From positions 150,001-182,000 of the forward strand of contig NZ_CP019964.1 of the NCBI RefSeq assembly GCF_002214165.1: 32,000 nucleotides of DNA. Direction: 5' to 3'. Position numbers and translations under genes: made by a program. The notes beneath the pieces are model-generated. The model made no database searches. It was not told the origin of the DNA and was given only the letters and a program-made list of their open reading frames with translations. The stretch is from Candidatus Saccharimonadota bacterium (GTDB lineage: Archaea; Micrarchaeota; Micrarchaeia; Micrarchaeales; Micrarchaeaceae). This document shows, piece after piece, positions 1-29,310 of the stretch. Within the stretch, counting starts at the first letter, position 1. Each line of letters opens with the position of its first letter.

Positions 1-1
1 T

Positions 2-136
2 TCCGACAAGGAGAAAAGCGACTTGGGAAGCAAGATGTCAAAGCTTGGTGATGCAGAGAAGGCACTATTAAGCGCAAGAGATGACAAAATAAGCGAGGGG
101 ATTAACCTTATAGATAAAATGGTAAACGGTGGATGA
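2..136 (+). CDS. 3' end of an upstream gene, product not identifiable from 44 residues
   Basis: Frame 2 is open from the window edge (SDKEKSDLGSKMSKLGDAEKALLSARDDKISEGINLIDKMVNGG) to TGA at 134-136. That stop overlaps the ATG at 133 of the next gene (ATGA coupling). A secretion ATPase often sits upstream of T2SSF genes, but no motif is visible here. Confidence 0.4.
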   Translation, partial: SDKEKSDLGSKMSKLGDAEKALLSARDDKISEGINLIDKMVNGG

Positions 137-1155
137 TATTGTATTACAAGGATAACAACAAAGGCAATGCGCAAAATAACGATCCTAATACAAATGCCAC
201 TCAAATGCCGAACCCCACGCAATCAAATTCATACCAGGTACCCGCAGGAGGTATTGGAGGCACTCCTGAAGATGAATCAAGAAGAAGGGTGCGCAGGGAT
301 ACAGCATCATTCCAGAGGCCGAGCCGCATAGATCTTTACCTGCAAGGAGTAGCTGCAAAGCATAAAGGGCTGGAACAGTCTTTGAAGGAGCAAGGAATAA
401 ATGAAAGTGTTACATCTTTCCTAAAACGTATGCTTTTTGCATCAGTTATTGTAGCAGTTTCAATAGGTGTGGTCGGGTTTATACTATTCTTGCATCTAGG
501 ACTTGTAATTGCATTTGCGGCTTTAGTTGGTATCGTTGTAGGAGTGGCAGCTTTTCAGTTCTCATTTAAGGCCTTCATAAACTATCCAAGCAAGAAGAAG
601 GTTTCAAATGGGAAGGACATAGAAAGGAACATCCTTTTTGCATCAAGAGACCTTATAATATCACTCCGTTCTGGAATGCCATTATTCAATGCAATGGTAT
701 CTATAAGTTCTGGATATGGAGCAGCAAGCAGGGAGTTTGCCCATGTAGTAGAGAAAGTTCAGTTCGGTGAATCCTTAGAACAAGCAATAGATGATACAGC
801 ATCCGAAAGCAAGAGTGCATCTTTCAGGAAGCTCATGATTCAGGCTTCTGTGAGCATAAAAGCAGGTTCAAATATAGTTGACTCTTTGCAGGAGATAGTA
901 GACGATCTTTCAAGGGAAAGGGTAATACAGCTGCATGCTTATGGGCAAAAGCTGAATGCAATAGCAATGTTCTATATGCTTTTCGGAGTCATACTCCCGA
1001 GCATGGGTATAGCAGTTGTCACTATATTGACAACATTCATAGCACTGATAGTAGTAACCCCAGAACTGCTTTACGGGGTATTGGTAGGTATTATTTTCCT
1101 GCAGGTGGTCTTCTTGCAGATGATAAGGAGTTCAAGGCCTATATTTACAATGTGA
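133..1155 (+). CDS. T2SSF-domain membrane platform protein of a type IV pilus-like system (TadB/TadC, PilC/FlaJ-like half)
   Basis: 340-aa ORF. It has a soluble T2SSF-type helical domain (IISLRSGMPLFNAMVSISSGYGAASREFAHVVEKVQFGESLEQAIDD...IKAGSNIVDSLQEIVDDL) flanked by TM helices. The first ~65 aa are N/Q/P-rich low complexity. ATGA overlap with the upstream gene. Confidence 0.8.
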   Translation: MILYYKDNNKGNAQNNDPNTNATQMPNPTQSNSYQVPAGGIGGTPEDESRRRVRRDTASFQRPSRIDLYLQGVAAKHKGLEQSLKEQGINESVTSFLKRMLFASVIVAVSIGVVGFILFLHLGLVIAFAALVGIVVGVAAFQFSFKAFINYPSKKKVSNGKDIERNILFASRDLIISLRSGMPLFNAMVSISSGYGAASREFAHVVEKVQFGESLEQAIDDTASESKSASFRKLMIQASVSIKAGSNIVDSLQEIVDDLSRERVIQLHAYGQKLNAIAMFYMLFGVILPSMGIAVVTILTTFIALIVVTPELLYGVLVGIIFLQVVFLQMIRSSRPIFTM

Positions 1156-1159
1156 TACA

Positions 1160-2146
1160 ATGGAGTTTAGATTTGAGCGTTTGGTTTCAAGGAACATCTC
1201 TTACAAGCTGTCGCACTTGCTAGACCTTGCAGGGCTCAAAATGACTGTAAACAAACTCCTGTCATACATGGTAATAGGATCTATACTGCTTATGGTTATA
1301 GTTCCATTTGTGCTGTACTTCATGAAAATAAATATAATATTGGCCATATTATCTGTTGTCATAGCTCCTGCAGTGTACTTGGTAGTAATATACTTTATAT
1401 TGAACTACCTTATAGATAAGAGGAAGTCAATCATGGAGAATTTCCTGCCTGACTATCTGCAGATAACTGCCGCAAACCTAAGAAGCGGTGTGTCTTTGGA
1501 TAGGGCAATGCTGATGGCAGCAAGGCCTGAGTTTGGGCAGTTGAGCCTGGATGTCAAGGAGATGAACAAGAAGATATATGGTGGCGAAACACTTGATGCT
1601 GCCCTTACCGAGCTTGCAAACAGTTATGATTCAACTACATTGAAGCATTCCGTTCGTATGGTATTGGAGGCATATAGGTATGGAGGTGCAATGTCTGACT
1701 TGATTTCACAGATGTCAAAGGACCTTAAAAACCAGCAGCTTACAATGAAAGAGATTTCGGGGCAGCTGCTTATGTACAGCATATTCATAGTATTCGCAGG
1801 GCTTATAGCAGCTCCCGCCATGTATGGCCTTACAAGCCAGATGATTGTTGTTACTGATACAGTATGGAAGGGTATACTGGCAGCCAATCCTGGTGGATTG
1901 CCAACTACAGGGGTATCTTTTCTAAAGCCAAGCCCTCCAAAGATATCCCCACAGACATATCACACGTTCTCATTGATATCAATAATATTTATTACGGGTT
2001 TTGCAGCCATAATCATGTCGACAATACAATCGGGTTCTGCAATAAAAGGCATTAAGTTCGTACCTGTATTCATAATAGTTGGGATAATCCTGTATTATAT
2101 AGTAGGTACTGTGATAAGCGGAATATTCACTGGATTGGGCGCTTGA
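1160..2146 (+). CDS. Second T2SSF-domain membrane platform protein (TadB/TadC, PilC/FlaJ-like half)
   Basis: 328-aa ORF starting 5 nt after the previous stop. T2SSF-type domain (FLPDYLQITAANLRSGVSLDRAMLMAA...GETLDAALTELANSY...YRYGGAMSDLISQMSKDL) bracketed by N- and C-terminal TM helices. Confidence 0.8.
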   Translation: MEFRFERLVSRNISYKLSHLLDLAGLKMTVNKLLSYMVIGSILLMVIVPFVLYFMKINIILAILSVVIAPAVYLVVIYFILNYLIDKRKSIMENFLPDYLQITAANLRSGVSLDRAMLMAARPEFGQLSLDVKEMNKKIYGGETLDAALTELANSYDSTTLKHSVRMVLEAYRYGGAMSDLISQMSKDLKNQQLTMKEISGQLLMYSIFIVFAGLIAAPAMYGLTSQMIVVTDTVWKGILAANPGGLPTTGVSFLKPSPPKISPQTYHTFSLISIIFITGFAAIIMSTIQSGSAIKGIKFVPVFIIVGIILYYIVGTVISGIFTGLGA

Positions 2147-2343
2147 TCCATACCCAAAAAGGTGAATAAACCTGCATCACGAAATAATTGACGATTATAC
2201 TTACCCGATATCTATTTATCGTATCTTTTAATGCACTTGCTAGTCGGATTTTGTATAACTTTTGATAAAATGAAAATATCCTATCTATAACCATCAATGC
2301 AATAATGCAAAATTAGCGGATATAAATGCATTCAATACATCTA

Positions 2344-4140
2344 TCAATTGGATTCTGTGTAACTTATATAATTCGTGTATGCCATATTGCTCTGTGTTAA
2401 ATTATACGAGTAATTATAGTAATTGAAGGCATTCCCATTAAGAGGATACCATGCAATCAGCCCATAATCATTCAAGGGCCTTCCATCCAGTCCCTGGTAA
2501 TATAAGTATTCTACCGATGCAGGGGAAAGAGATTTATTGTAAATCTGCACATTTGCGATTGAGCCATTGAAATTATTCATTACAAGTTGGTCGCTCCCAA
2601 CAATCATTTTTCCAGCTATATTTATTTCGTTTATTGATATTGATGGGGTCAGTGGAGGCGGAAAGGCAATCTGTGTTGTATTGACAAGTTTACCATTAAC
2701 ATACAGAGACAAGTTTCCTGTAACCTTATTCCATACACCAGTAATAAAATACCAGTTATTTGGGGCTATTACCCCACCAGATGAATTATACTTAAATATA
2801 TTAGCAATATTGCTCCATCCAACTATTGCTTTACCGTCTTTACCTTTAACCCCTATATAAAATAATCCATTAGGTTCATTTATTATCTTGCCATTTACAT
2901 CTGCTATATTTTGCGAGTAGTTTCCTTTTCCATTATTATTTATCCATGCAGATATCGTTATATTTGAAACTAATTCTGGACCGAATGAAGAGATATTTGC
3001 ATCTGAGTTTACACCATCAAATTCTGCAACCTGCCTGCTGTAAGAATTAAATGACACCAAGCCGTAATTCGAAGTAGTATCTGGGTTGTACTCGCCTTCC
3101 TGTAAATAATCTTCGCTATCATTGGACTTAAAGTAATATCCATCGGCTATATAATTTTTCAAAGCTGTATAATTGTAAAGTGCAGGATTAGGACCAAGGA
3201 TTACCTTTGTTGAACCTGAATTGCTGTACTTAGATAATAAATTTATCGTGCTATTAGGGTATACAAGGTAGGGCTTTGATATACCTGTTGTATTGGTTAC
3301 ATTTGCAACTAGGCCCGCCATCCCGCATACGCTTCCATTAATTCCACTTGCGTTATTTGCTAAAAGTATGTAATTGCCATTCTGGATACTGCTTGGAATG
3401 CTCTGGCATGTGGGCTTTGTGAAATAATATAAAGTTCCTGGCAGTGTAGGGGACATATAAGTAAATCCGGAAAGTGCATAACTTGAATTTCCAAGTGTAT
3501 AAAGTGTAAAGTTCAATGGGATAACTAGATTGTTGAAATTTGCATTCTGCACACTGTGAAGATCAGGCATCCCTTCCAAGGAGACATTTGCAACAGCAAC
3601 TATTGGATAATAGGAGAGCAGCCCGCTGTTATTTAGTATTGCAACGGCTGTATACTCCGCTTCCAAATCTGTTGAATTTGACTGATAAACATTCAGGGTC
3701 CCATTTTCAATTTCAAGGTCTACCCCATCTGCGCTTGCTTTGGACTCAAGTAGATTTAAATAGTCTGAAATGTCCATCCCTATAGCATTCCTATAATCAA
3801 TTCCATACAAGCTTTGGTTATCCATCAGATCTATAATATCAGATTTTGTATTAATTACAAAATTATTACCTCTTAATTTTGGATCCGATTCATAATTAAC
3901 AAGCACGGAAACCGAATTTTTTAGGGATAATTTAAGGAAGGAAGAAATAGCCGGACTTATTGTTTTAACCATAGCGCTTGATGAACCTGTGCTTACAGCA
4001 GAAGAGGACAAGTCGTCATAGCTTATATTAAGTGTTACATAGGTAATCAATTCTGCCATCATAAGTATTAGCACTATTATCATTAGCAAAGTTAAGAGTA
4101 TGCCTTTCTTGTTTTTGCCATTAAATCTATTCAGCCCCAT
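2344..4140 (-). CDS. Pilin-like (putative class III signal) surface protein with one C-terminal LamG/concanavalin-like module
   Basis: 598-aa ORF. N-terminus is GKNKKG followed by ILLTLLMIIVLILMM (basic stretch then hydrophobic helix). C-terminal LamG_3-like signature: NITISAWINN...LYVNGKLVN...FNGSIANVQIYNKSLSPASVEYLYYQG...LIAWYPLNGN. About 25 N-x-S/T sequons by my count. The ATG overlaps the upstream stop by 10 nt. Confidence 0.75.
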   Translation of the reverse strand: MGLNRFNGKNKKGILLTLLMIIVLILMMAELITYVTLNISYDDLSSSAVSTGSSSAMVKTISPAISSFLKLSLKNSVSVLVNYESDPKLRGNNFVINTKSDIIDLMDNQSLYGIDYRNAIGMDISDYLNLLESKASADGVDLEIENGTLNVYQSNSTDLEAEYTAVAILNNSGLLSYYPIVAVANVSLEGMPDLHSVQNANFNNLVIPLNFTLYTLGNSSYALSGFTYMSPTLPGTLYYFTKPTCQSIPSSIQNGNYILLANNASGINGSVCGMAGLVANVTNTTGISKPYLVYPNSTINLLSKYSNSGSTKVILGPNPALYNYTALKNYIADGYYFKSNDSEDYLQEGEYNPDTTSNYGLVSFNSYSRQVAEFDGVNSDANISSFGPELVSNITISAWINNNGKGNYSQNIADVNGKIINEPNGLFYIGVKGKDGKAIVGWSNIANIFKYNSSGGVIAPNNWYFITGVWNKVTGNLSLYVNGKLVNTTQIAFPPPLTPSISINEINIAGKMIVGSDQLVMNNFNGSIANVQIYNKSLSPASVEYLYYQGLDGRPLNDYGLIAWYPLNGNAFNYYNYSYNLTQSNMAYTNYISYTESN

Positions 4141-5975
4141 GATAAAACACTCACATTGTATACATTCATTGTCCCATTTACATTTAGCAATTCCGGTGAA
4201 GACGCTTGGCTTATTATGTCAGATGAAGCAAAGCCGGGAGGTGTAAAATTCGATTCTATAAACCTTACGTTGTCCGGATTTAAAGAACCACCATTTCCGC
4301 CAAAACCGCTATGCCCTATCCCAGAGTAATCATTAAAATTACCAAGCAGTGGATACCATCCAATAACACTGCTGCTCACAGGCTCTCCTGCAATTCCTTC
4401 ATCATATAAGGTAACAGCTTGGTTTGCGTTTACCGCGCTGTCATAAACTTGTACATTGGATATTGCCGCAGTGGCGAGTTCATTACCCCCTGGAGGGTTA
4501 TCCCCAATTCCTAATGTCGGATACTCCATTCCGGATATAGGTACAGTAAGAAGGCAATTTTTAGCTTCTACCCCATTTAAGTATATTGTGACATTCGTGT
4601 AATTCACTACCGACACAACAGCGTTATACCATTTGTTGGGGAATACTGTGCCTGCATTGGTAGAGCAGAATTCCCAATCGCTCGGCCAGTCCTCTCCTAT
4701 TCCAAAGTTATTACTAGACCCGCCTGCCCAAGTACCTCCAAAATCCAAATTCTGACTTCCTCCTATACCGCCATTGGCAGATCCATTATAAATGTCAACT
4801 ATAGGGCTTTGGCCTCCCCCAACACCTGAAGTAGGGTCATCTGCCTGCGAGAGATAAAACCACTGGTTTATTGTGTAATTTTTCCCAGGATATGTGAAAT
4901 TTGGTGCATAAAATCCGGCAGTTCCATCAAAATAGGCAACTTTCAAATCAGGGGCATAGGTGCTATTTATGTATATTCCCGTATCCTCATTATGGTATAG
5001 ATTATCCATGATTATGTCTGCCTCAGGTGCTTGATCATTGAGGTACAAATCAGCGATCGCCGAAAGCATGCTTTGGTTTTCAGTCAAATTTACGTTGCCT
5101 ATTGATATGTCTCCGGTATTAAAATAGGTTACGTTATAAGATTTAAATACATTGGGATTGCTCTCAGAATTTAATGGATACCACTCAAGGAGGTTTGATG
5201 ATCTTAGAGGAATTCCCATTGTACCTTCATCATAAAGAGACGAAACTTGTGTGCGTGTTAACCTAGATCCATAAATCTGCACATTTGAAATATATCCAGG
5301 GAAATAGGCACCCTGATAACTGAAAAGTCCAATGTTAAATCCTGTAGCTCCTTCCAAAGCCCCAGAAAATTTTTGTGTGAGGTTCCATTCGCCGTTTATG
5401 TACAAAGTGTAATTTCCCCCTATAACTTTGCCATCCTGGCTAATAGATTCATTCTCAGTAGCCACAACTTGGTACCATCTATGGGGCTTTAAGCAATATG
5501 GGGAATCATCGGCAAAAGTATTTCCTGTATTGTTAGTGACTAATACCTGTATATTGCAATTCCCATTTAGGAAAATTGACATGGATCCGTAATTGTATGA
5601 AGAAACAGCAGATATAATTCCCGCATTATTATCGGGTATATAATTGAGATAAATCCAAGCGACATAAGTCAAATTCTCTGCTGCAGGTACCGATAGCTGT
5701 GATGATATATAACTGTTGTATCCATCAAAAGAAGCTGCCCCGAAAGTATTGTACGACCTCGTATAACCGGAAAATGGGTTATCAAGTGCACTTAAGTAAC
5801 CGCCCAAAGGTGTAGATGTAAGCACTTGCAGGTCATCCTCAACCTGTGAAATAGAGGATTGATAAGATATAGGAGCTATAAAATGAATATAAAGCAGTAT
5901 TGAAATGGCTGCAGCAGCAACTATAAGTGCAAACACCGCGTCAAGCGTAAATATAAACCCTTTTTTATTAGTCAA
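4131..5975 (-). CDS. Pilin-like (class III signal) surface protein with two LamG modules
   Basis: 614-aa ORF. N-terminus is MTNKKG|FIFTLDAVFALIVAAAAISILL. The two LamG closing motifs are YISNVQIYGSRLTRTQVSSLYDEG...LLEWYPLNSE and AISNVQVYDSAVNANQAVTLYDEG...VIGWYPLLGN. The only start that retains the signal peptide is TTG at 5975, in a TTGA overlap with the upstream stop. Confidence 0.75.
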   Translation of the reverse strand: MTNKKGFIFTLDAVFALIVAAAAISILLYIHFIAPISYQSSISQVEDDLQVLTSTPLGGYLSALDNPFSGYTRSYNTFGAASFDGYNSYISSQLSVPAAENLTYVAWIYLNYIPDNNAGIISAVSSYNYGSMSIFLNGNCNIQVLVTNNTGNTFADDSPYCLKPHRWYQVVATENESISQDGKVIGGNYTLYINGEWNLTQKFSGALEGATGFNIGLFSYQGAYFPGYISNVQIYGSRLTRTQVSSLYDEGTMGIPLRSSNLLEWYPLNSESNPNVFKSYNVTYFNTGDISIGNVNLTENQSMLSAIADLYLNDQAPEADIIMDNLYHNEDTGIYINSTYAPDLKVAYFDGTAGFYAPNFTYPGKNYTINQWFYLSQADDPTSGVGGGQSPIVDIYNGSANGGIGGSQNLDFGGTWAGGSSNNFGIGEDWPSDWEFCSTNAGTVFPNKWYNAVVSVVNYTNVTIYLNGVEAKNCLLTVPISGMEYPTLGIGDNPPGGNELATAAISNVQVYDSAVNANQAVTLYDEGIAGEPVSSSVIGWYPLLGNFNDYSGIGHSGFGGNGGSLNPDNVRFIESNFTPPGFASSDIISQASSPELLNVNGTMNVYNVSVLSWG

Positions 5976-6511
5976 TCAACCGCCAAATTACCATTTGTCC
6001 AGGTTTCAACTATGACAGATACCTGCATGTTATTCAGCATTGCACTTGAAGTCTGCCTCACCACACTAGTAGCATTGTACAGTGCAGGGTTTCTGCCTAT
6101 CTTTATATTTATTCCACTGCCCCTTATTACTATATAGTAATTGTACGAAGCCCCTAAAGAAGTCTTTGTAGCCTGATAATTTGAATTTGCCATGGCTATG
6201 AAGGTATAAAGCTTGCTATTGCTTATCTGATCGGATCCATTCTTCAACAAACCTATTGATATTTCATTCCAATTTGCATTATCGGATAAATTTACATCAT
6301 CTTGCCAATTTATAGGGTAACCTGGTGTCATTAAGGTGCCCGACATTGTAAATGCCTGTATACTCATCACCGTGGATCCATCGCTGTAAGAAAGGGCCAG
6401 CTGATTGTTGATATTATACCAAGTATAAGCCAGCAAGGTCAATGCCACAGTAAATATGACTATCGAAAATATGACATCGATACTCCAAAACTGTGCTTTG
6501 GCATTTTTCAT
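5972..6511 (-). CDS. Small pilin-like protein (class III signal, no LamG module)
   Basis: The ORF track extends this gene to 6562. Starts at ATG 6511 (MKNAKA|QFWSIDVIFSIVIFTVALTLL) or ATG 6523 place a short basic leader directly before the hydrophobic helix and avoid a long overlap with the upstream gene, whose stop is at 6516-6518. The rest is a ~150-aa globular domain. Confidence 0.65.
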   Translation of the reverse strand: MKNAKAQFWSIDVIFSIVIFTVALTLLAYTWYNINNQLALSYSDGSTVMSIQAFTMSGTLMTPGYPINWQDDVNLSDNANWNEISIGLLKNGSDQISNSKLYTFIAMANSNYQATKTSLGASYNYYIVIRGSGINIKIGRNPALYNATSVVRQTSSAMLNNMQVSVIVETWTNGNLAVD

Positions 6512-6515
6512 ATTA

Positions 6516-9197
6516 TCAACCATGCAACGAATATTTCTTGTAAGGCGGAAGCCCCTGTTCATAAAGCTGTTCTATCTCTGTACCATTCAAGGTCGAATTG
6601 TATATCTGTATATCGGAGATAGTTCCTGTGAAGTTCTCCGGTGTGTTAGGAGGTCTTGTACCTGGTATAGAGGTTGTCAGATAATCTTCTACTCCTGATG
6701 AACTGTATTCTCCAATGGAGCTTCCAACTTCACCTCCGTCTATATAAAAGGTTCCAACCCCTGGCGAACCGCTATTATAAGTCAAAGCCGCAAAATAAGT
6801 TGTATTAAATGAACCTTCAAAAGGTATACTTCCAGTATTGTAAACCCAACCAAATATATATCCTGTCCTATTCATGCTTACGAATGGCATGTTCCAGCCA
6901 TTAGGTGCACTTATCCCTACAATAGGCCCTCCGTTATGAGGGCTGTTGAACCACGCAACTACTGTAAAATTATGATTGGTGCCAAGCCAATAACCTATTG
7001 TGGAATTTATCTTAGCGCTATTTGCACCCGAACTTCCATTTAAGAAAAGGTAAGGTCTTGAATTGATATGCTTGCTAAACACGGCACTTGTGAATCTCAC
7101 ATTGGAAAATGAGTCTATAACTGTTGTATTATACCCATAATCTTCTGTAGTGTTGTCCAATGTGAACCATGCAATTAAGTTGGATCCCCCTAAAGGCGCA
7201 GAAGCCATCCCATTTTTATACAATTCTGCCACCTGGTAACTTTTGAGCTCATCAGCATACAGTTGTAAATTTGCTATAGAGCCATTGAAGCCATCAGGGT
7301 AAAAGCTGCTATTGTAACCTATGTAATATGGAGAATATTGGGTAATTGGCAGGAAAGCCGCGGTGCTGCTGTTTATTAATAGGTCATTTTCAAACAATCT
7401 TTCAGAACCTGTATTGAAATTGTACTCAGCGGTTACAAAAGTCCATTTGTCTTTAGGGATGCTGATGGTTTTATTAGAAAATACTGGATAATTACCTATC
7501 TCCAAGCTCAAATCTCCTGTCTTATTTATGTAAAGTGAAAATCCAGAGTTGGCTGTCCTATTTATATCATTTATTATAGTTTCTGGCTGCGTTGAAGGAC
7601 CTCTGTAATAAACCCACGCGCTGACTGTGAAAGAGTTATTTCTTGCGATATCAAGCAGGACATCAGAGGGAGGAACCTCTACATATGTCGGTGAAGAGGG
7701 AGTGAAATTAGCAACGTAAATCTTTGCGTAATCAGATTCATTTTCCCAAGTGTAATTGCCGGATATCTGGCCGACATTTCCTATCCCGCTCAAATCAAAT
7801 ATTGTATTACTGTATCCCGAATCCAAAGGATACCATCCAACCAAGTTGTCTTCAGAGAACAGATTGCCGTTGAATGCATTTACCGTTACGTTGTCGGTGC
7901 CGTTTGTCCATACCACATCAGTGACGTTGCTTATCAAGTTTGAGGTTAGGTAATTCGTGAATTTAAGAGGGGAGCCTAAAGTTCCCGTGCCTGTGACCAA
8001 TCCAAGGTCAACGCCATTTAGCTGATTGTTTAATATATTAGATGCATTCATAGACAATATGAAGCTATTGCTGAACGTCAGCCCTTTTGAAGTAATTTGA
8101 GGGGTTGAAGTATAATTGCCCAGATAATTATTTATATTGCCATTCAGGGTCCACCATCCAACCAAGTTATTGAAATCTGATGGCGCCCCGTTCATCCCAG
8201 AAGAATAAATATACTTTACGTAGCTTGAATTTACTGCTTCGTTATAAATTTGTAGGTTTGCCATTGAGCCTTGGAAATAAGCACCATCAGTAGGGAAATA
8301 ACCAATATATATTGGACCAGATAAGCGTGGTATTGGAGTATTAGTTGTGTTGTCGATAAGAACTCCATTTACATAAAGATGCATCGCCCCGCTTGTATAG
8401 TTATATGTGCCGACTACGTTCTGCCATTTGAAATATGAAATATCTGCATACGTTGAGCTTCCTCCACCTCCATCATTGCTGAACTGGAGCTTGGGATTAG
8501 TAGTAGTGCCTTGCTCTATCATATATGGAGCGCCAGTTCCAGAATTAGCCTGTCCCAAAAACCCTCCGTTATTAGGATCCCAAGAAATGGGGTTTACCCA
8601 TATGCTCCAGGTAAAGCTGTTTGATTCCAGCTCACTGGTATTTGGTATATTTATGTCTGCATTCCCATCGAAATTAGCAACCTTTCCATATCCTTGCACT
8701 GATGTCATAAGATGCTCTGCCAGGTAGTCATATCCTGCGGTATAAGAGTTTATTATTATATGGCCATTGTTGTTGTAAAATTCCATTGTTCCAGCAGATG
8801 GAACACGATAAAAGTCATACCCTACAGGAGTACCAGAGATTTGCATATTTCTTGCAGCGCTATAAGACAATGCTGTTATATTCTCATTCCCTACCTTCAT
8901 AGTGGCTATTACTTCGCCTCCGCTACTCAACGATAAATTATAGTTGTCGAATGTGCCTGTACTAGGAAGGGTAATAGATGACAAATATCCATTTCCAGAC
9001 TCTAAGGCAATATCTATGTGCTCGGCTACGGTTTGTGTTATAAGTTGGAGTTCAGAATATTCCTGCTCCTGCAAGGAGTAAGCCCTTTCGTTAGCAACAA
9101 GTGCAAATATGACTAAAAATATTAGGAGGACTATAGAATAAACTATTACAAACTCTATAGCTATCTGGGATTTGCTCTTGCCACATTTGCTATTCAA
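6516..9197 (-). CDS. Giant pilin-like (class III signal, DUF361-type QxxxEF) surface protein with three complete LamG modules
   Basis: 893-aa ORF. N-terminus is KSKS|QIAIEFVIVYSIVLLIFLVIFALV, with Glu at +5. LamG signatures: FTWSIWVNP...LYVNGVLIDN...SMANLQIYNEAVNSSYVKYIYSSG; FTVSAWVYY...SIANLQLYADELKSYQVAELYKNG; FTVVAWFNSP...TISDIQIYNSTLNGTEIEQLYEQG. There is no ATG before about residue 100, so the TTG at 9197 is the only start that keeps the signal. Confidence 0.75.
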   Translation of the reverse strand: MNSKCGKSKSQIAIEFVIVYSIVLLIFLVIFALVANERAYSLQEQEYSELQLITQTVAEHIDIALESGNGYLSSITLPSTGTFDNYNLSLSSGGEVIATMKVGNENITALSYSAARNMQISGTPVGYDFYRVPSAGTMEFYNNNGHIIINSYTAGYDYLAEHLMTSVQGYGKVANFDGNADINIPNTSELESNSFTWSIWVNPISWDPNNGGFLGQANSGTGAPYMIEQGTTTNPKLQFSNDGGGGSSTYADISYFKWQNVVGTYNYTSGAMHLYVNGVLIDNTTNTPIPRLSGPIYIGYFPTDGAYFQGSMANLQIYNEAVNSSYVKYIYSSGMNGAPSDFNNLVGWWTLNGNINNYLGNYTSTPQITSKGLTFSNSFILSMNASNILNNQLNGVDLGLVTGTGTLGSPLKFTNYLTSNLISNVTDVVWTNGTDNVTVNAFNGNLFSEDNLVGWYPLDSGYSNTIFDLSGIGNVGQISGNYTWENESDYAKIYVANFTPSSPTYVEVPPSDVLLDIARNNSFTVSAWVYYRGPSTQPETIINDINRTANSGFSLYINKTGDLSLEIGNYPVFSNKTISIPKDKWTFVTAEYNFNTGSERLFENDLLINSSTAAFLPITQYSPYYIGYNSSFYPDGFNGSIANLQLYADELKSYQVAELYKNGMASAPLGGSNLIAWFTLDNTTEDYGYNTTVIDSFSNVRFTSAVFSKHINSRPYLFLNGSSGANSAKINSTIGYWLGTNHNFTVVAWFNSPHNGGPIVGISAPNGWNMPFVSMNRTGYIFGWVYNTGSIPFEGSFNTTYFAALTYNSGSPGVGTFYIDGGEVGSSIGEYSSSGVEDYLTTSIPGTRPPNTPENFTGTISDIQIYNSTLNGTEIEQLYEQGLPPYKKYSLHG

Positions 9198-15419: not shown

Positions 15420-15911
15420 TCAAGCAGTACCAAGTTTTATAGCAGGGAATCCATGCTCTTTTCCAACCTGGTTGAATATGTCAACCGATTCTCTCGCAAG
15501 CGCTATATCAGGATCGACATCAAACGCTATTGCCATGTTTATTATCTTGTCCATTGTTGCCTCTTGACCGCTTGTCAATATAAATAATATTGATATGACG
15601 TATACAAGATGGTTCTTGAACTTTATGCTTGCAATGCCATTTAGGATATCCCTGTTTACTGGGACTCCAATTGCATTGAAAAGGCGCTCTATATTATTTC
15701 TGTTTATGTCCTTTCCTGTTATATCAAGTACCCCTGCAGCTACAAAGTAAGGGAGTACATTGCCTGCAAGGTTTGCCGGTATATAACTGTTTATTTCTGC
15801 TAACCCTCTTTTAACCTGCGCAGTTAGCAAAAAAGAAATGAGATCCCTGGTGAACCCTATGTCATCATTCAGTATTTGCATTAAGCTTTTTCCTTCTTCC
15901 ATAAAAACCAT
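15420..15911 (-). CDS. Small protein of unknown function; possible tandem repeat of a ribosomal stalk P1/aL12 N-terminal-domain-like fold
   Basis: Two ~45-aa segments, YFVAAGVLDITGKDINRNNIERLFNAIGVPVNRDILNGIASI and YVISILFILTSGQEATMDKIINMAIAFDVDPDIALARESVDIF. Both resemble my recollection of the archaeal P1 NTD (Y.YAALLLh..GKEI.EENl.aVL.AAGVE..EARvKALVAAL). No acidic tail. ATG 15911 overlaps the upstream stop (TGATG); the track starts at TTG 15914. Confidence 0.5.
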   Translation of the reverse strand: MVFMEEGKSLMQILNDDIGFTRDLISFLLTAQVKRGLAEINSYIPANLAGNVLPYFVAAGVLDITGKDINRNNIERLFNAIGVPVNRDILNGIASIKFKNHLVYVISILFILTSGQEATMDKIINMAIAFDVDPDIALARESVDIFNQVGKEHGFPAIKLGTA

Positions 15912-16648
15912 CAATTTGACAATACATCAAAGCCTGAATCTGTTATCTGGTATGGCAAGCTTGATAATTTATGTGCCGAATTCCTAAGCTTAGTTACTTC
16001 TATCGAATACTGTGTAGCACCTTCACTGCGATTCATGCTAAGCACCATTATTCCATCAAACATTGATGTGCTGTAAAGCCCTATGCTTAAAGGATCGCTG
16101 TTGCTAACATTCTGATTAACCTCATATGTCAGTATTGAGGTCACTCCAATATCCCTCAAAGCTTCGGTCATATAGGTTATTGCTCTTGTAAATGTCCTAT
16201 CGTCTTCCATGATAGGCCTTAAGCTGCTTATAGAATCAAAAATCACTAATTTTGATTTATTGGTCTGTATATCTGATACACAATCGCTTATGAATTTTTC
16301 AAAGTTCTCCCTGCTCTTGAATGCATCTATTAATGGTCTGTGGCTTATTTGTATCATGTTGCTGCTTATATAATCTTCATAATCGTCGAAAGAATAAAAG
16401 GCATTTTTTATATTATTAACCAATGCTCCCTTCCTTTCTTCATTGGTAATGAAGGTGGACGGAATTTCAAGCTTTGCATTATGGTATAATATTTCGAGCG
16501 AAAGAAGCGTTTTTCCCGCTCCCGGAGACCCCAAGAAAAGAATCTGCGATCCCTCCGGAATTCCTCCTCCAACCATATTGTCCAACCCCTTAACCCCTGT
16601 TTTTATTCTATTTACTACTCCACTATCTATATTCACACCAATTTTCAA
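15911..16648 (-). CDS. KaiC-like / RecA-superfamily single-domain ATPase (paralog B)
   Basis: TGVKGLDNMVGGGIPEGSQILFLGSPGAGKTLLSLEILYHNAK (Walker A), paired glutamates TNEER, Walker B LVIFDSIS. The start is TTG 16648 in a TTGA overlap with the upstream stop; GTG 16636 is an alternative. Confidence 0.85.
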   Translation of the reverse strand: MKIGVNIDSGVVNRIKTGVKGLDNMVGGGIPEGSQILFLGSPGAGKTLLSLEILYHNAKLEIPSTFITNEERKGALVNNIKNAFYSFDDYEDYISSNMIQISHRPLIDAFKSRENFEKFISDCVSDIQTNKSKLVIFDSISSLRPIMEDDRTFTRAITYMTEALRDIGVTSILTYEVNQNVSNSDPLSIGLYSTSMFDGIMVLSMNRSEGATQYSIEVTKLRNSAHKLSSLPYQITDSGFDVLSN

Positions 16649-17376
16649 TCCTTTATCTGAGGCAATGACAAGACTGCTATACCATCACCTTTTATCTCAT
16701 AAGGATACGTTCTGAAACTATGGTCCGTGCCCCTCATCTTGATAACCTCCAATATTGGGACTCTATTGTTGCTCCCACCCTCCAGATAAAGCGAGATTAT
16801 ACCATCATACATGAAGAATTCTGGTTTGAACTGTATATCCTCTCTTGTTGCGGTGTTCAATTCTATTGTCATTAAGGATGTTATATTCTGTGAGCGCAAT
16901 CCATTAATAAGGTCCATAGTCAGCTGCCTATACGTCAGCTTGTCCTTTATCATGAGCTTGATTACCGTTATAGAATCAACTACCAAATTGCTTGCTTTGT
17001 ACGAACTGGCAATAGAGCTTATTCCCGATACCAATTCATTGAAAGAATAACTTCCGCCATCGGTATCTCTCTGTACATACTGTCCCGTTTTTTCAGATCC
17101 ATAAATAATTAGCTTGTTCTGGCTTATCAAGTCGTCTATGTCTTTAAACTCCGGAAAAGCGGCTTTTGCATTCTCTACTATCATGTCAGAGGTTTCTTCC
17201 AGCGAGAACATCAGACTTACTTCTCCGGCTTTTGCATTATGGTAAAGGTACTCAAATGAAAAAAGAGTTTTACCTGCCCCTGGCCCTCCTGCCAATGCAA
17301 CCTGGTTGCCCTGTGGTATACCACCCCCTACAATATCATCAAAATTTTTTATTCCTGTTTTAGTCCTTTCTCTCAT
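16645..17376 (-). CDS. KaiC-like / RecA-superfamily single-domain ATPase (paralog A)
   Basis: TGIKNFDDIVGGGIPQGNQVALAGGPGAGKTLFSFEYLYHNAK (Walker A), FSLEETS paired glutamates, Walker B LVVDSITV, and ILEVIKMRGTDHS near the C-terminus. Confidence 0.85.
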   Translation of the reverse strand: MRERTKTGIKNFDDIVGGGIPQGNQVALAGGPGAGKTLFSFEYLYHNAKAGEVSLMFSLEETSDMIVENAKAAFPEFKDIDDLISQNKLIIYGSEKTGQYVQRDTDGGSYSFNELVSGISSIASSYKASNLVVDSITVIKLMIKDKLTYRQLTMDLINGLRSQNITSLMTIELNTATREDIQFKPEFFMYDGIISLYLEGGSNNRVPILEVIKMRGTDHSFRTYPYEIKGDGIAVLSLPQIKD

Positions 17377-23671: not shown

Positions 23672-24925
23672 ATGCTATCCAAGCAGCTGAAATCACAAAG
23701 TGCTGTTGAGTTTTTATCTACTTACGGATTTGTAATACTGATAATAGGAATTGTGATATCGTTGCTCTTTGCATATATATCGCTGCCAAAGTCTATAATC
23801 CCTTCACAATGTGATTTCTATAACGGATTCGATTGCCTAAGCTCTGGGTATTCTGTAAACTACTCTACAAAGATAGGCAGCGTGTTCACACTGATAGCTT
23901 CTGACACTGAGCCAGGTTCCGTCAAAATAACCAACTTCTCAGTAAAAATAGGCACTTACAATAGCAATTATGGTTTCTGCACCCCAAATGTAAGTGAGGG
24001 TGGACAGAAAATATACTGCTATGCATATTTCAATAATTTTACTCCTGTAATAGGCAATCAATACGATGGGCTTTTTGTTCTTAAATCCGATTACTGTTCA
24101 GCCCCTCCACAGAATCTTTCTGACGTGAACTGCTTGAGTAAGCCTGCAAATTTTACCTTTGACGGGTCCTTTAGGGTACAGGCAGCCGACTTAAACTACT
24201 CTTACGATCCATACTATGCCAATATATCAATAACCAATTCAGGAGGAAAGATACCTGCAGGTTACCAAGCCAATATAACTATAGATCCTGCTAGTTTCCG
24301 TAGTGCAGAAACACAAAATTTAGGAAATATAAGATTCTATTACAATGGCAAAGAGCTTTACAGCTGGTGCCAAGATAACTGCAGCTCATCTTTTTCACAG
24401 GCCACGTTTTGGGTAAAATTGCCGGTATCTTTATATTCTGATGAATCAATCCCCATAACCATGGAATTTCTACCAAAAACTGCAAATTACAGTGGGGATT
24501 ATTCAGGAGAGGCACCTCAGCTTAGTCTACCATATGCAGGATATGACAATGGTGACAAGGTGTTCGATTTTTACAGCGATTTCAACGGAGTTGTATTAAA
24601 CAATGCAAAATGGAACACAACGCCCGATGCAATCTACACTGTAGACAATGGGCTCACATTTTCATCTGCAGGTTCTGGATATATTGAGAGCTTGCCGAAA
24701 TTTAACAGTTATACCGAAAAAGAGGCTTACGTATATCCGAAATCAGATACCTGGGAAAATTTCACAGAAAAAGGAAATTACTACTTCAACTATTCGGAAG
24801 GCCCTATTTTTATTTATCCAAGTGGCAGCAGTGGCAAGATGCTTTATATATTAGTAAGGAATATCCCTCCTTCCGGTATTGCTCCTAATATAGGAATTGG
24901 TAGCCTTGAAAAGCAGCCAACCTAA
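23672..24925 (+). CDS. Pilin-like (class III signal, QxxxEF type) surface protein with a DUF2341-like domain and a concanavalin-like domain
   Basis: N-terminus QLKS|QSAVEFLSTYGFVILIIGIVISLLF, with Glu at +5. DUF2341-like block: ISITNSGGKIPAGYQANITIDPASFRSAETQNLGNIRFYYNGKELYSWCQDN...ATFWVKLPVSL...IPITMEF. It is followed by VFDFYSDFNGVVLNNAKWNT, as in DUF2341/LamG proteins. Confidence 0.65.
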   Translation: MLSKQLKSQSAVEFLSTYGFVILIIGIVISLLFAYISLPKSIIPSQCDFYNGFDCLSSGYSVNYSTKIGSVFTLIASDTEPGSVKITNFSVKIGTYNSNYGFCTPNVSEGGQKIYCYAYFNNFTPVIGNQYDGLFVLKSDYCSAPPQNLSDVNCLSKPANFTFDGSFRVQAADLNYSYDPYYANISITNSGGKIPAGYQANITIDPASFRSAETQNLGNIRFYYNGKELYSWCQDNCSSSFSQATFWVKLPVSLYSDESIPITMEFLPKTANYSGDYSGEAPQLSLPYAGYDNGDKVFDFYSDFNGVVLNNAKWNTTPDAIYTVDNGLTFSSAGSGYIESLPKFNSYTEKEAYVYPKSDTWENFTEKGNYYFNYSEGPIFIYPSGSSGKMLYILVRNIPPSGIAPNIGIGSLEKQPT

Positions 24926-25173
24926 CCGAATGTTCATTTATTTATTGCAACCAGACAAACATTTTTATATCTGTTAGTCCTTAATGAATATTGAAAATAG
25001 TCATACTTAAAACTTTATGGCGTTTACAATGTTATCAATTATTAACAAATCATCATATGCGGCATATCTAATGCCACAAATTGATTTAAACACAGTGAGC
25101 ATAAGTGCATAGCAAGAGAAGTAATGCTGTAAAGCCGAATGACTATTTCTAAAGCAAAAGACAAGTGAATTTA

Positions 25174-26679
25174 ATGGCAAAGTCGTATATAGACATTGTA
25201 AAGTATGTAATAGAAGCAAAATTTGATATAGATGGGACAGTAGAAAAGCCTGATATAATAGGCGCTATTTTTGGGCAAACCGAAGGTTTGCTTGGAGAAG
25301 ACCTTGATCTAAGGGATTTGCAGAAGAACGGCAAGATCGGAAGGATAGAAATAGAGAGTTCATCCAATTCCGGGAAAACATCCGGTACGCTTGTACTCCC
25401 TTCCTCATTGGACAGGGTAGAAACATGTATATTAGGAGCCGCAATAGAATCTGTTGATCGGGTAGGCCCATACGAAACAAATTTCAAGGTGCTAAAGATA
25501 GAGGACACAAGGAATGAGAAGAGAGCCCATGTAATAAACCGTGCAAAGGATCTTCTAAAATCTCTCATGGAAAACGTCATACCAGATAGCAAAGAGATAA
25601 GCGATATGGTCGAGTCTGAAGTAAAGTCCAGCACAGTAATAAATTATGGCCCCGAGAATCTGCCTGCTGGCCCTGATATAGACAAAAGTTCAAGCATAAT
25701 AATAGTGGAGGGGAGAGCTGATGTGGTTAATTTGCTGCGTAGCGACATAGCAAATGCAATCGCAGTGGGAGGAGCTACTACGGACATACCAAAGAGCCTG
25801 ATAAAACTAGCTACCGAAAAAGAGGTTACTGTATTCACTGACGGAGATCATGGCGGTACCATGATAGTCAAGAATATAGCAAGCGTAGCTGATATCGATT
25901 ATGTAGCAAGGGCACCGGATGGCAAGGAGGTAGAAGAGCTCACAAGAAAAGAGATAATAAAAGCCCTAAGATCAAAGATGCCTATGGAGCAGGCAGCAGT
26001 TGTATACAAAATCAGCCTGCCTGAGAGCAACCATAACTCTGAGAGCAGGGGAAATAATAAGGAAAGTGCAAACAACAACTATAATAAGGACAGGCCAAGG
26101 TTCAAGAACAACCATAACTATCCACAGTATTCAAAGCCAGCAGAACCACAGGAACAAAAGAAGCAGTTGAGAGGACCAGAGCCACCAGTAGACGCAGAAG
26201 AAGATAAGATCCATGTAGAAACAAGCAGGGAACCCAAGGTCGAGAACAAAGAGCCTGAAGCAGTCCCTGCCAAAAAAGAAGTGGAAGAAAATCAGAGGCC
26301 TGCACCGGAAAGGCAGCAATCTATCAAGAAACAAGCAGCAAAGGAGGAGCTTAAGGAAAAGCCAGCAGAACTGGTAGAGAAAGTTAAGTTAAAGCCCGAG
26401 GAAAGCATGATAGCTTCCTTGTCAGAACTTAAAAACACCCTTAGAGGAAGAATTTATGGCTCTGACAAAAAGCTAATAGCCGAAGTTCCTATCCGTGAGC
26501 TTATCCAGTCAATACAGGATATAGACAATATCGAATCCATAGTGTTTGACGGAATAATAACACAGAGGCTCGTTGATCTGGCAAACAAAAAGAGTGTAAA
26601 ATCAATATATGGGGTAAGATCAAGCCAGATAGCACGCAAATACGGGTCAATGCTCCTTTACACTTCAGATGATGTCTGA
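25174..26679 (+). CDS. dnaG: Archaeal DnaG primase (TOPRIM) with a ~120-aa low-complexity insertion
   Basis: The N-terminal domain YIDIVKYVIEAKFDIDGTVEKPDIIGAIFGQTEGLLGEDLDLRDLQKNGKIGRIE is typical of archaeal DnaG. TOPRIM motifs IIIVEGRADVVNLL and VFTDGDHGG. The track starts at GTG 25165; ATG 25174 is preferred. Confidence 0.92.
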   Translation: MAKSYIDIVKYVIEAKFDIDGTVEKPDIIGAIFGQTEGLLGEDLDLRDLQKNGKIGRIEIESSSNSGKTSGTLVLPSSLDRVETCILGAAIESVDRVGPYETNFKVLKIEDTRNEKRAHVINRAKDLLKSLMENVIPDSKEISDMVESEVKSSTVINYGPENLPAGPDIDKSSSIIIVEGRADVVNLLRSDIANAIAVGGATTDIPKSLIKLATEKEVTVFTDGDHGGTMIVKNIASVADIDYVARAPDGKEVEELTRKEIIKALRSKMPMEQAAVVYKISLPESNHNSESRGNNKESANNNYNKDRPRFKNNHNYPQYSKPAEPQEQKKQLRGPEPPVDAEEDKIHVETSREPKVENKEPEAVPAKKEVEENQRPAPERQQSIKKQAAKEELKEKPAELVEKVKLKPEESMIASLSELKNTLRGRIYGSDKKLIAEVPIRELIQSIQDIDNIESIVFDGIITQRLVDLANKKSVKSIYGVRSSQIARKYGSMLLYTSDDV

Positions 26680-27202: not shown

Positions 27203-28189
27203 ATGTATCCCATGGTAAAAAATGCGCTAGAAATTAAAAACTTAGTTGAGAAGTTCGGAGATTTTACCGCTGTCCGAGATATATCATTCAACGTGAAGGA
27301 GGGAGAGATATTTGGGCTTTTGGGGCCTAACGGTGCTGGAAAAAGCACAACTCTAAACCTGATACTGACATTGCTTACTCCAACTTCAGGCTCGATAAAT
27401 CTTTATGGAATAGATATACACAAGGAGGTTCACAGGGCAAAGAAGATGATAGGCTTCATGACACAGGAGACAGTAGTGGAGCAGGATCTGACACCCCGCC
27501 AGAACCTTGAGATATTTGGAGAACTATACCACATAGAAAACATAAAAGATAAAATAGCAGAAAGCTTAAAAGATGCAGAACTGACGGATTTTGCAGATTA
27601 CAAAGCAGGCTCAATGTCGGGTGGAATGCAGAGAAGGCTTGCACTGGTAAGATCGATGATACAAGATCCAAAGATAATAATTTTGGACGAGCCAACTACA
27701 GGACTGGATGTCCAGAACAGGACAGCATTATGGGAAAAGATACGTAGCCTGAATAAGAAAGGCATCACAGTGCTGCTTACAACACAGTACCTTGAGGAAG
27801 CCGATGCTCTATGCGACAGGATAGCAATAATAGACAAAGGAGAAATAAAAGCAATAGGCACAGCATCCGAGCTTAAAGCATCTGTCAGCTCGGGGGACAT
27901 AGTAGAGATAGTAACGCAATCGGATGCTACAGGCAAAGTTGCTTCAGTGCTGGAAGATTTTGGGCTGTCTCCCGTAGTCAAAATAGATATAGTAACAGCA
28001 GCAATCGAAAAAGGAGAGATAGCGAAATTCTCCGATATAACAAAAGAGCTGATAAAGGAGAATATACCGATATTGGGGATAAGCATGCACCTCCCAACAC
28101 TTGATGACGTATTCATAAAGCTTACCGGAACCGGATTAAGGGATAAGGCGGAGGGGAAGCCACAAATTCAAATGAGGTCCAAAAAATGA
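27203..28189 (+). CDS. ABC transporter ATP-binding protein (ABC-2/DrrA-type exporter)
   Basis: Walker A GLLGPNGAGKSTT, Q-loop MTQE, signature MSGGMQRRLAL, Walker B IIILDEPTTGLD, plus the C-terminal domain typical of ABC-2 ATPases. Confidence 0.93.
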   Translation: MYPMVKNALEIKNLVEKFGDFTAVRDISFNVKEGEIFGLLGPNGAGKSTTLNLILTLLTPTSGSINLYGIDIHKEVHRAKKMIGFMTQETVVEQDLTPRQNLEIFGELYHIENIKDKIAESLKDAELTDFADYKAGSMSGGMQRRLALVRSMIQDPKIIILDEPTTGLDVQNRTALWEKIRSLNKKGITVLLTTQYLEEADALCDRIAIIDKGEIKAIGTASELKASVSSGDIVEIVTQSDATGKVASVLEDFGLSPVVKIDIVTAAIEKGEIAKFSDITKELIKENIPILGISMHLPTLDDVFIKLTGTGLRDKAEGKPQIQMRSKK

Positions 28190-29310
28190 GTATCGTAAGC
28201 GATTCTTTAATTATATACAAAAGGGAAATGCTGATATTCAAAAGCAAGCTTAGGACAAACCTAATTAGGTCGCTGATATTCCCATTAGTGCTTATATTGA
28301 TGCTTGGCAACCTCGGGGCAAATTCCGATATAATAACAAACATAGGTGTAGTAAACTATGCCTCAAATCCATCAGCTTATAACTTTGTACAGTCACTACA
28401 ATCAAACAATGACCTAAACGTTGAAATGCTTACGACACAGCAAGCTGCATTATCCGCATTGAAGGCGGGCCAAATTACAGATGTTGTGGTAATATCCCCA
28501 AGTTTCCCAAGCTTAAACACGCAAAATCCTGGAATATACATATATTATGCAAACAATTTTGCCGACCTTGGAAATTCAGTTAATATAATAGAGTCATTGG
28601 CAGAGCAGTACGAATCGAATATAGGAAAGCCTATAGAGTACTCGTCAACTTCCTCTCCTGATCAGGTGGTTTCAGACCCAGCATATGCCGCGGATGCCAG
28701 TTACAGGACATTCCTGGTTGGCGGTGTAATAGTAATGGTCGCCGTTTTTGGATCCATGTTCGGTGGAGGTATGTCAATTATAACCGATAGGCAGTTAGGC
28801 AACTTAAAGTCATTCCTGATAACTCCAATAAATAAACTGTCAATCATATTAGGGAAGATAATGTCCGGAACAACCCAAGCATTGATATATGGAGTAATAG
28901 CTATTTTGATAGGGCTGCTTGATGGTGCTACCGTAGCCATGGGCATAGCAGGCGTTGCAATAATACTAGTGCTTATCGCATTGACTGCGGTAGCATTTTC
29001 TGCGATAACGATAATACTTGCATCAAGAATCTCAAAGATCGAGGTATATTCGATAATTGCAAATGCAATAACATTACCTCTTTGGTTCATATCTGGAGCA
29101 TTTTTCCCCACATCCTCATTGCCCTCGTGGCTATACCCTCTCAGCGTAATAGATCCATTGACATATTCCGCAAGTGGTATAAGGTATATCATGATGTACG
29201 GATATTACCCAATCAATTCTGCGATATTAGATTTTTCAGTTCTGATAGCATTCTCGGTGGTAGTGCTATTATTGAGCTTTAAGCTGTTCAGCACCACTAT
29301 AGGAAAATGA
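28186..29310 (+). CDS. ABC-2 type transporter permease
   Basis: The ATG overlaps the ATPase stop (ATGA). One N-terminal TM helix, a ~150-aa extracytoplasmic loop, then five clustered TM helices. This is the ABC-2 permease topology. Confidence 0.85.
   Translation: MSIVSDSLIIYKREMLIFKSKLRTNLIRSLIFPLVLILMLGNLGANSDIITNIGVVNYASNPSAYNFVQSLQSNNDLNVEMLTTQQAALSALKAGQITDVVVISPSFPSLNTQNPGIYIYYANNFADLGNSVNIIESLAEQYESNIGKPIEYSSTSSPDQVVSDPAYAADASYRTFLVGGVIVMVAVFGSMFGGGMSIITDRQLGNLKSFLITPINKLSIILGKIMSGTTQALIYGVIAILIGLLDGATVAMGIAGVAIILVLIALTAVAFSAITIILASRISKIEVYSIIANAITLPLWFISGAFFPTSSLPSWLYPLSVIDPLTYSASGIRYIMMYGYYPINSAILDFSVLIAFSVVVLLLSFKLFSTTIGK

Follow-up and report, generated by a model that had tools for sequence, protein, structure and literature searches.

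The 32,000-nucleotide stretch of DNA analysed here (contig NZ_CP019964.1, positions 150,001 to 182,000 of the forward strand; in its whole length it is called the window) likely holds the distal part of an Epd/Tad-like type IV filament locus of archaeal clade 1 / System 1, whose lectin-bearing minor or tip pilins would serve attachment to a host cell. In sequence the proteins of the locus agree fully (100% identity) with those encoded by Candidatus Mancarchaeum acidiphilum Mia14, a member of the Micrarchaeota (DPANN), and the window matches both the contig GCA_027353625.1 of a metagenome-assembled genome (MAG) and the 952-kb Mia14 genome. Mia14 is an ectosymbiont of Cuniculiplasma divulgatum, a host which lacks a cell wall. 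Within the window the locus comprises Mia14_0171 to Mia14_0177 and is followed by Mia14_0178, which encodes Hsp20. Three of its proteins carry large laminin G-like (LamG) ectodomains, and, since their N-termini appear to be prepilin-like, with predicted cleavage motifs conserved at each gene position, these are probably adhesive accessory pilins that mediate host-cell attachment, a design known from bacteria.

The locus enters the window with the 3' end of Mia14_0171 (1..136, plus strand; ASI13507.1), which encodes a conserved cytoplasmic protein of 233 amino acids (aa) between the ATPase and the platform genes. The stop codon of Mia14_0171 overlaps the start of Mia14_0172 in an ATGA at 133-136, which is the coupling to an upstream gene that an earlier note on this DNA had read. 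Mia14_0172 (133..1155, plus strand; platform half 1, TadB/TadC-like) and Mia14_0173 (1160..2146, plus strand; platform half 2) contain one T2SSF domain each, with Pfam E values of 1.2e-15 and 1.4e-13, respectively. They converge on a tightly coupled minus-strand operon of four genes, so that open reading frame (ORF) coordinates and Pfam agree with the arrangement described in that note. In the direction of transcription these are g1 (Mia14_0177, 6516..9197, 893 aa), with three Laminin_G_3 modules; g2 (Mia14_0176, 5972..6511, 179 aa), which is small, pilin-like and free of LamG; g3 (Mia14_0175, 4131..5975, 614 aa), with two modules; and g4 (Mia14_0174, 2344..4140, 598 aa), with one module at the C-terminus. 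The g2 frame as read is 196 aa long (5972-6562, minus strand), while the GenBank version starts at 6511, and the resulting 179-aa protein is 100% identical to Mia14_0176. The genes of the operon are joined by a 4-nt gap between the stop of the 893-aa gene and the start of the 179-aa gene, a TTGA overlap at 5972-5975 and a 10-nt overlap at 4131-4140. A promoter and terminator scan of the convergent intergenic region (2147-2343), of a bacterial type not designed for archaea, gave nothing useful. A genomic-island signature was considered and dropped, as the GC content of the locus (0.36-0.40) is like that of the remaining window.

The machinery continues upstream of the window. In the 10 kb that precede it (stretch L001), a 444-aa coiled-coil protein (L001 6303-7637), a 561-aa T2SSE ATPase (L001 7621-9306) and the 233-aa protein (L001 9303-10004) form a run of genes that are all coupled to the T2SSF pair. 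The ATPase, whose gene lies two genes upstream of position 1, is of the FlaI/TadA type (T2SSE in Pfam with E 1.8e-35; in NCBIfam 255.7 bits for FlaI and 173 bits for TadA, neither of which reaches its equivalog cut-off), and is thus the PilB/FlaI-type ATPase that the earlier note had proposed to look for in this place. Mia14_0172 has weak ArlJ/UpsF matches in NCBIfam and is named GspF/TadC in GenBank. These assignments are in line with the genome paper, in which Mia14_0170 is a CpaF-family ATPase, Mia14_0172 and Mia14_0173 are TadC and Mia14_0176 is a secreted component of the pilus system (Golyshina et al., 2017, Nat Commun 8:60, PMC5498576, Suppl. Table 2). The comparison covered 86 loci in all, among them 80 related genome loci (L007-L086). 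A relative of the 233-aa protein is found at the equivalent position in 45 of these 80 loci, and the 444-aa coiled-coil protein is detectable by sequence in just 10; neither protein has a Pfam or NCBIfam family match.

All four operon products have their sole hydrophobic segment at the N-terminus, so that the short basic leader followed by one hydrophobic helix, noted before in each of them, is borne out. With a slash at the predicted cleavage site, the candidate class III signals read KSKS/QIAIEFVIV in g1, MKNAKA/QFWSIDVIF in g2, MTNKKG/FIFTLDAVFALIV in g3 and ...KNKKG/ILLTLLMIIV in g4. The g1 signal is of the QxSxE (DUF361) type with Glu at +5, and in this motif the Q is the +1 residue of the EppA cleavage site (DUF361/EppA class). 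In place of FlaFind we used a simplified in-house rule, which asks for [KR][GAS] followed by 20 uncharged residues with a mean hydropathy of at least 1.7 and which was calibrated on background ORFs from the 80 related loci, the background being other ORFs of at least 150 aa. The rule is satisfied by 98% of g3, 89% of g4, 89% of g2 and 51% of g1 orthologues in these loci, compared to 4% of other ORFs and 0-2% of machinery proteins. Within the window, the only real genes that are rule-positive are the four operon genes and one at 23672-24925, discussed below; the other rule-positive ORFs are antisense shadows of real genes.

The residues around the predicted cleavage sites are conserved separately at each gene position. 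In the g2 family, [KR][AG]-QFWS-x-D is invariant in 26 homologues, behind leaders that vary in length from 3 to 17 residues. In the g3 family, G6, F7, F9, T10 and D12 are invariant and K5, I8 and A13 nearly invariant in 27 homologues, with leaders varying from 'MKG' to 'MNKLLKGNSRG', and this N-terminal motif is kept in 56 of 69 orthologues. The g4 motif, [KR][GAS]-[ILVQMF]-[LIVMF]-[LIVMFA]-T-[LIVM], is present in 48 of 61 positional orthologues. For g1, no homologue came up when the N-terminal 174 residues were used in a word-indexed search, and a later exhaustive search with the N-terminal 175 residues gave 321 relatives at the 50%-identity cluster level. Among the best 150 of these 321, which for the most part are 880-1140 aa long, the match begins no later than residue 60, and in 40 sampled members Q11 and E15 (Q at +1 and E at +5) are invariant. 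Conservation exactly at the junction between a variable leader and the helix is what would be expected of a peptidase site, while a plain membrane anchor does not need it. The class III-like character of the N-termini, as proposed in the earlier note, therefore holds at the level of motifs and in a pattern unlike that of plain anchors.

The LamG nature of the ectodomains is solid as judged from profiles and the predicted fold. Laminin_G_3 (PF13385) matches g1 with E 3.7e-46 (157 bits), g3 with E 3.2e-25 (89 bits) and g4 with E 7.9e-18 (65 bits), all well over the cut-off of 27.6, and the matches fall into 3, 2 and 1 stretches, in agreement with the module numbers read before from the translations. 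All six copies of the closing motif [SA][ND][VLI]Q[IVL]Y ... LY were located, at residues 313, 642 and 861 of g1, 230 and 506 of g3 and 529 of g4. In g1 a conserved N-terminal carrier domain of about 150 aa precedes the three modules, and in g4, where Laminin_G_3 occupies residues 391-543, about 350 aa between the signal and the module have no family match. The AlphaFold2 (AF2) model of g3 (predicted local distance difference test score, pLDDT, 72.7) consists of a helix (residues 11-63), a jelly roll, an insert of helices and strands (289-357), a second jelly roll and a C-terminal hairpin, and the C-terminal strands ('...YNVSVLSWG') are conserved. In Foldseek it matches laminin LG4-5 and neurexin LNS domains (~1e-14) as well as pentraxins and the receptor-binding domains of clostridial neurotoxins, with E values ranging from 1e-14 to 1e-8. 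The fold does not determine the ligand, so that binding of carbohydrates or glycoproteins is a prediction. The three LamG proteins contain 2.8-4.2 N-glycosylation sequons per 100 aa (25 in g4) as against 0.3-0.6 in the T2SSF proteins, a density consistent with extracellular glycoproteins. A search of PDB sequences with the 893-aa g1 returned nothing, and none of the four proteins matches a solute-binding protein family of the bindosome type. For g2, which has no Pfam match, the AF2 model (pLDDT 79.8) shows a helix (4-60) and a four-stranded sheet in a pilin-like layout.

The association of these genes with the machinery is conserved well beyond Mia14. Divergent homologues (down to 39% identity) in L004, L005 and L006 share an arrangement of nine genes in unrelated genomic contexts. 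Relatives of g2 were found in 106 genomes, nearly all labelled Micrarchaeota and including the complete genome of Ca. Micrarchaeum sp. A_DKE. Contigs with the cassette are also filed under Marsarchaeota, Methanothrix, 'Acidiferrales bacterium' and 'bacterium' MAGs (L008, L020, L021, L031, L052, L053, L055, L074), which is probably due to mis-binning and does not reflect the real distribution. Synteny was counted in 47 species-level loci with enough flank. The T2SSF pair is next to g2 in 43 of them, and 38 of those 43 contain at least two LamG genes in the operon too, while the remaining 5 are without any detectable LamG gene. Among the 4 loci without a nearby T2SSF pair, 2 have at least two LamG genes, 1 has a single one and 1 has none. 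Co-occurrence of LamG genes with T2SSF and ATPase genes, which the earlier note had left to be checked in relatives, is thus kept as direct adjacency in most of the Micrarchaeota genomes examined, and since the contexts differ this adjacency is not coincidental.

The comparison also shows which parts of the cassette vary. The g3 orthologues often carry a PQQ-type beta-propeller in place of the first LamG module, retaining the KG/FIFTLDA N-terminus and the C-terminal 'YNVSVVxW' (for example L004 10529-12658, L006 10569-12758 and proteins P0052, P0058, P0070, P0076 and P0085), so the variable modules look as if they were inserted into a conserved scaffold. Laminin_G_3 is present in 39 of the 40 sampled g1 relatives, and some g1 relatives add DUF2341, Big_1 or beta-propellers. 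Compared to A_DKE, the machinery proteins are 53-62% identical and the LamG proteins only 28-33%; such faster divergence fits exposed, fast-evolving interaction surfaces. In one subclade (L030 9989-16743; L052 5764-15061; L081 9998-16786) the ATPase, the T2SSF pair and g2 are kept and no LamG genes are adjacent. Upstream of g2 in L052 there are a pilin-like ORF of about 200 aa (RG/QNAIELL) and a 427-aa protein (RLQTSLEF); beside g2 of L030 and L081 there was no sign of a class III-like gene. LamG-less loci with small or non-LamG class III-like neighbours indicate that LamG modules were added onto what are otherwise ordinary pilin-like genes. Going one step further, and more tentatively, the conserved set of four prepilin-like proteins, which more than 100 species of Micrarchaeota possess, may form the lectin-armed priming or tip complex of an Epd/Tad-like pilus and act as the primary device by which these DPANN ectosymbionts recognise their hosts, in which the swapped modules (tandem LamG, PQQ beta-propeller, DUF2341, Ig-like) set the host range; we regard this as possible but somewhat doubtful.

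From the genes, motifs and folds we infer cleavage, incorporation into a filament, tip position and ligand in the following way. The four proteins would insert in the membrane via their N-terminal helices, and a single FlaK/PibD-like peptidase would take off the short basic leaders, so that the mature proteins g1 to g4 would begin with Q, Q, F and I, respectively. With the split platform, the ATPase would then extract the helices from the membrane, and through these helices the four proteins may come together as a priming or tip complex comparable to GspHIJK or FimU-PilVWX with PilY1, which would cap a filament of a small major pilin encoded elsewhere. Displayed at the tip, the six heavily N-glycosylated lectin modules could recognise glycans or glycoproteins of Cuniculiplasma, the host without a wall, and in this way hold the ectosymbiont to it. 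The earlier note had spoken of a pilus with an oversized lectin-like tip or minor-pilin complex, its 'pilins' being giant proteins. We favour the tip or minor-pilin part of this proposal, while the filament itself is probably not built from the giant proteins, because in clade 1 the major pilin is a small stand-alone gene (about 70 aa; Makarova et al., 2016); none is found in the 32-kb window, and MIA14_0118 elsewhere in the genome is annotated 'pilin/flagellin with class III signal peptide' (Golyshina et al., 2017, PMC5498576).

Several observations weigh against such a pilus, and some of them would suit other explanations better. None of the curated archaeal class III or pilin N-terminus models in Pfam matches the first 70 residues of the four proteins at E values up to 10, a sub-threshold DUF7288 match for g3 being the single exception, and the sub-threshold NCBIfam matches to 'TafC family fimbrial protein' cover the LamG parts only. 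In 14 of 44 g1 orthologues the invariant Q is preceded by L or F, which is non-canonical at -1 for PibD/FlaK-type peptidases, so that either the peptidase tolerates these residues or the leader is handled differently. Examples are MRL/QVALEY and the g1 orthologues at L004 6588-10004 and L038 5226-8483, among others. No protein of the A24 peptidase family was matched among the scanned proteins of the window and the upstream stretch, and the A24 signature (G.GD.K in ORFs with multiple transmembrane segments) does not occur in the 80 related loci, nor is a gene of this family present in or near any of the 86 loci; that Mia14 has such an enzyme is taken from the literature, where one FlaK-like peptidase, MIA14_0570, is listed (Golyshina et al., 2017, PMC5498576). 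The g3 model has no clearly separate globular pilin head, and Foldseek matched the g2 model to none of the solved pilins (best hit, E 0.03, ribosomal protein uS3), so that a pilin fold of g2 is putative. In the publications consulted the Mia14 pili appear in no image and are called only likely (PMC5498576). This last point, together with the lack of a small major pilin gene in the locus or the window, would also suit a short pseudopilus or bindosome-like structure without an extended pilus, in which the processed class III proteins form a membrane-proximal lectin coat or are simply held by their helices. Class III signals do occur on non-filament proteins, such as the substrate-binding proteins of Sulfolobus and other archaea, and ectodomains of up to ~850 aa would be bulky along a filament body. 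However, absence of the major pilin from the locus is to be expected, since clade 1 systems usually carry it as a small stand-alone gene, and a candidate is annotated in MIA14_0118; pili-like connections between ARMAN and Thermoplasmatales cells have been seen by electron microscopy (cited in PMC5498576); and four conserved pilin-like genes in fixed order resemble the minor-pilin sets that prime filament assembly. We therefore consider a coat of this kind unlikely, though it is the strongest of the competing explanations.

Another explanation would be that the LamG proteins have nothing to do with the pilus machinery and are common type II (signal-anchored) lectin-like proteins which Sec/YidC inserts in the membrane, their position next to the machinery being coincidental or regulatory. 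The failure of the curated class III models would be natural in that case, Mia14 has 18 LamG copies that are mostly away from pilus loci, and in 2 to 3 genomes (e.g. L041) the LamG operon is separate from the machinery, which again speaks against a pilus role. It is nevertheless very improbable in our opinion, as the adjacency holds in 38 of 47 loci of differing contexts, [KR][GA], the following Q, F or I and an acidic residue at +5 or +6 are near-invariant while the leader length varies, and the LamG-free g2 always belongs to the operon and remains beside the machinery in loci that lack LamG genes. Least probable of all, and hardly to be entertained, is that the LamG proteins are substrates released by a machinery of type II secretion, for instance soluble lectins or toxins directed against the host. 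The machinery is homologous to type II secretion systems and g3 does match the receptor-binding domains of clostridial neurotoxins, but this match reflects only a generic lectin-like jelly roll; type II secretion substrates have Sec or Tat signals and not pilin-like N-termini, whereas here the sole hydrophobic segment is a long helix of the uncleaved type directly after the basic leader. On balance, accessory pilins of a clade 1 filament remain the explanation we prefer.

One further gene in the window may belong to the same system. A stand-alone 417-aa protein (p417, ASI13528.1; 23672..24925, plus strand), annotated in GenBank as 'PHA01755 superfamily protein', has a QxAxEF class III-like N-terminus (KS/QSAVEF) that is rule-positive, 8 cysteines and a match (E 1.6e-07) to DUF2341, the domain of the tip adhesins predicted for clade 1 pili. 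Judged from these sequence features it is a possible further substrate of the pilus. Its accession numbering suggests about Mia14_0192-0193 rather than MIA14_0194 of the published table, which had been considered. About 6.7 kb from the pilus operon there are two adjacent genes for KaiC/RecA-like ATPases of 245 and 243 aa (15911-17376, minus strand); ATPases of this type have been proposed in the literature as regulators of archaeal type IV pili. At 27203-30914 (plus strand) genes for an ABC transporter ATPase and permease are followed by one for a surface protein of 535 aa, which has CARDB and NPCBM-associated domains, is anchored by a transmembrane segment at the C-terminus and is placed by GenBank in the COG1361 S-layer family. 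A 504-aa ORF (25165-26679, plus strand) is DnaG-type primase-like by reading of its translation alone; its C-terminal half includes an extended, charged run of low complexity (~130 residues) that is rich in E, K and P. Further upstream, in L001 (2795-5233, plus strand), an 812-aa protein has transmembrane segments at its N-terminus and a J-domain at its C-terminus, with a long low-complexity region between them, an unusual build for a DnaJ-domain protein, and its gene precedes that of an M50-family membrane protease.

The molecular basis of host recognition and attachment in DPANN archaea is largely unknown. If the LamG proteins are presented by a pilus, they become candidates for attachment, host range and possibly exchange of DNA or metabolites that are open to test in the two cultivated pairs of Mia14 and Cuniculiplasma and of Ca. 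Micrarchaeum A_DKE and its host from the Thermoplasmatales. Should the conserved cassette act as proposed, it would be the first defined adhesin-pilus apparatus of an archaeal episymbiont and a counterpart of bacterial modular pilins on an unrelated scaffold, and grafting of lectins onto pilins would have arisen in archaea as it did in bacteria.

Much of this was in print before. Mia14_0170-0177 has been described as a type IV pilus system of the Methanococci/Methanothermobacteria/Thermococci group, and the same study reported that LamG-like genes (arCOG07813) are expanded to 18 in Mia14, that some are linked to pilus loci and, as a proposal, that they take part in interaction with the host (Golyshina et al., 2017, PMC5498576); a 2018 review repeats the account of the Mia14 pilus. 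The impression of novelty given by the earlier note was thus overstated, as both the locus and its LamG linkage were published in 2017 and LamG-bearing modular pilins are familiar in bacteria. In the accessible part of the 2017 paper, the pilus gene table does not list the three LamG proteins (g1, g3 and g4), and the account, which concerns the same DNA, contains neither class III signals on them nor the comparative synteny and motifs. We found no publication stating that LamG proteins of Micrarchaeota are themselves prepilin-like. What appears to be new, then, is the predicted prepilin character of these proteins, the finding that Micrarchaeota at large conserve the four-gene cassette, and the swapping of modules. 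The gain is incremental, because the locus had already been published as a pilus system, together with its link to LamG and the idea of host interaction, and current models are not contradicted.

In its organisation the Mia14 locus is close to clade 1 / System 1, of which the Epd pilus in Methanococcus maripaludis is an example (Makarova, Koonin & Albers, 2016; Sivabalasarma & Albers, 2026 preprint). It shares with these systems the split TadC-like platform, the trait by which they are defined, and the CpaF/FlaI-type ATPase. The ATPase of this clade is arCOG01819, and the assignment of Mia14 is stated by Golyshina et al. (2017, PMC5498576). Makarova et al. (2016) describe these systems with a pair of TadC genes, a number of minor pilins with class III signals and major pilins that are small and encoded on their own; the Mia14 locus likewise has several predicted class III proteins, a QxSxE-type signal with Q at the predicted +1 position and, apparently, a small major pilin encoded elsewhere. 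It differs in lacking, within the locus, a dedicated EppA-type peptidase and the FleN/MinD ATPase and in having only four pilin-like genes. The adhesin modules also differ: large DUF2341 proteins are predicted as tip adhesins in clade 1 loci (Makarova et al., 2016), while in Mia14 they are tandem Laminin_G_3 modules fused to pilin-like N-termini, and the 233-aa and coiled-coil proteins of Mia14 match no family. The presence of four pilin-like genes in one operon, oversized members included, also recalls GspH-I-J-K of type II secretion and FimU-PilVWX with PilY1 of type IVa pili. This likeness is one of gene number and architecture only, as there is no sequence or fold match to GspHIJK or FimU-PilVWX, and the PilY1 propeller (IPR008707) is absent from the Mia14 proteins with their pilin-like N-termini, the propeller in other g3 proteins being of the PQQ type. 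In lifestyle a parallel is offered by Saccharibacteria (Patescibacteria/CPR), ultrasmall obligate episymbionts which, according to PMC11623550, use type IV pili for host binding; these are bacteria, and their pilins are unrelated.

A close precedent is offered by bacterial modular pilins, where PF13385 occurs as a module within the 15 architectures that are most frequent, and where PilC of Streptococcus sanguinis carries a concanavalin A (ConA)-like lectin module and PilB a vWA module (Raynaud et al., 2021, PNAS, PMC8179133). The bacterial proteins have the N-methylation motif IPR012902 and are cut by PilD-type peptidases, whereas the Mia14 proteins lack IPR012902, as expected for archaea; the Mia14 signal is unrelated in sequence to the bacterial one, and we found no sequence similarity to solved structures. 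Bacterial modular pilins usually consist of a small recognisable pilin module with one extra module, while in Mia14 there are up to three tandem LamG modules and 3 of the 4 operon members are modular. The overall design, as predicted for Mia14, is nevertheless that of S. sanguinis PilC: a class III signal and a pilin helix would serve as the carrier for a grafted module, with a predicted position at the pilus tip and a predicted role in adhesion to glycans.

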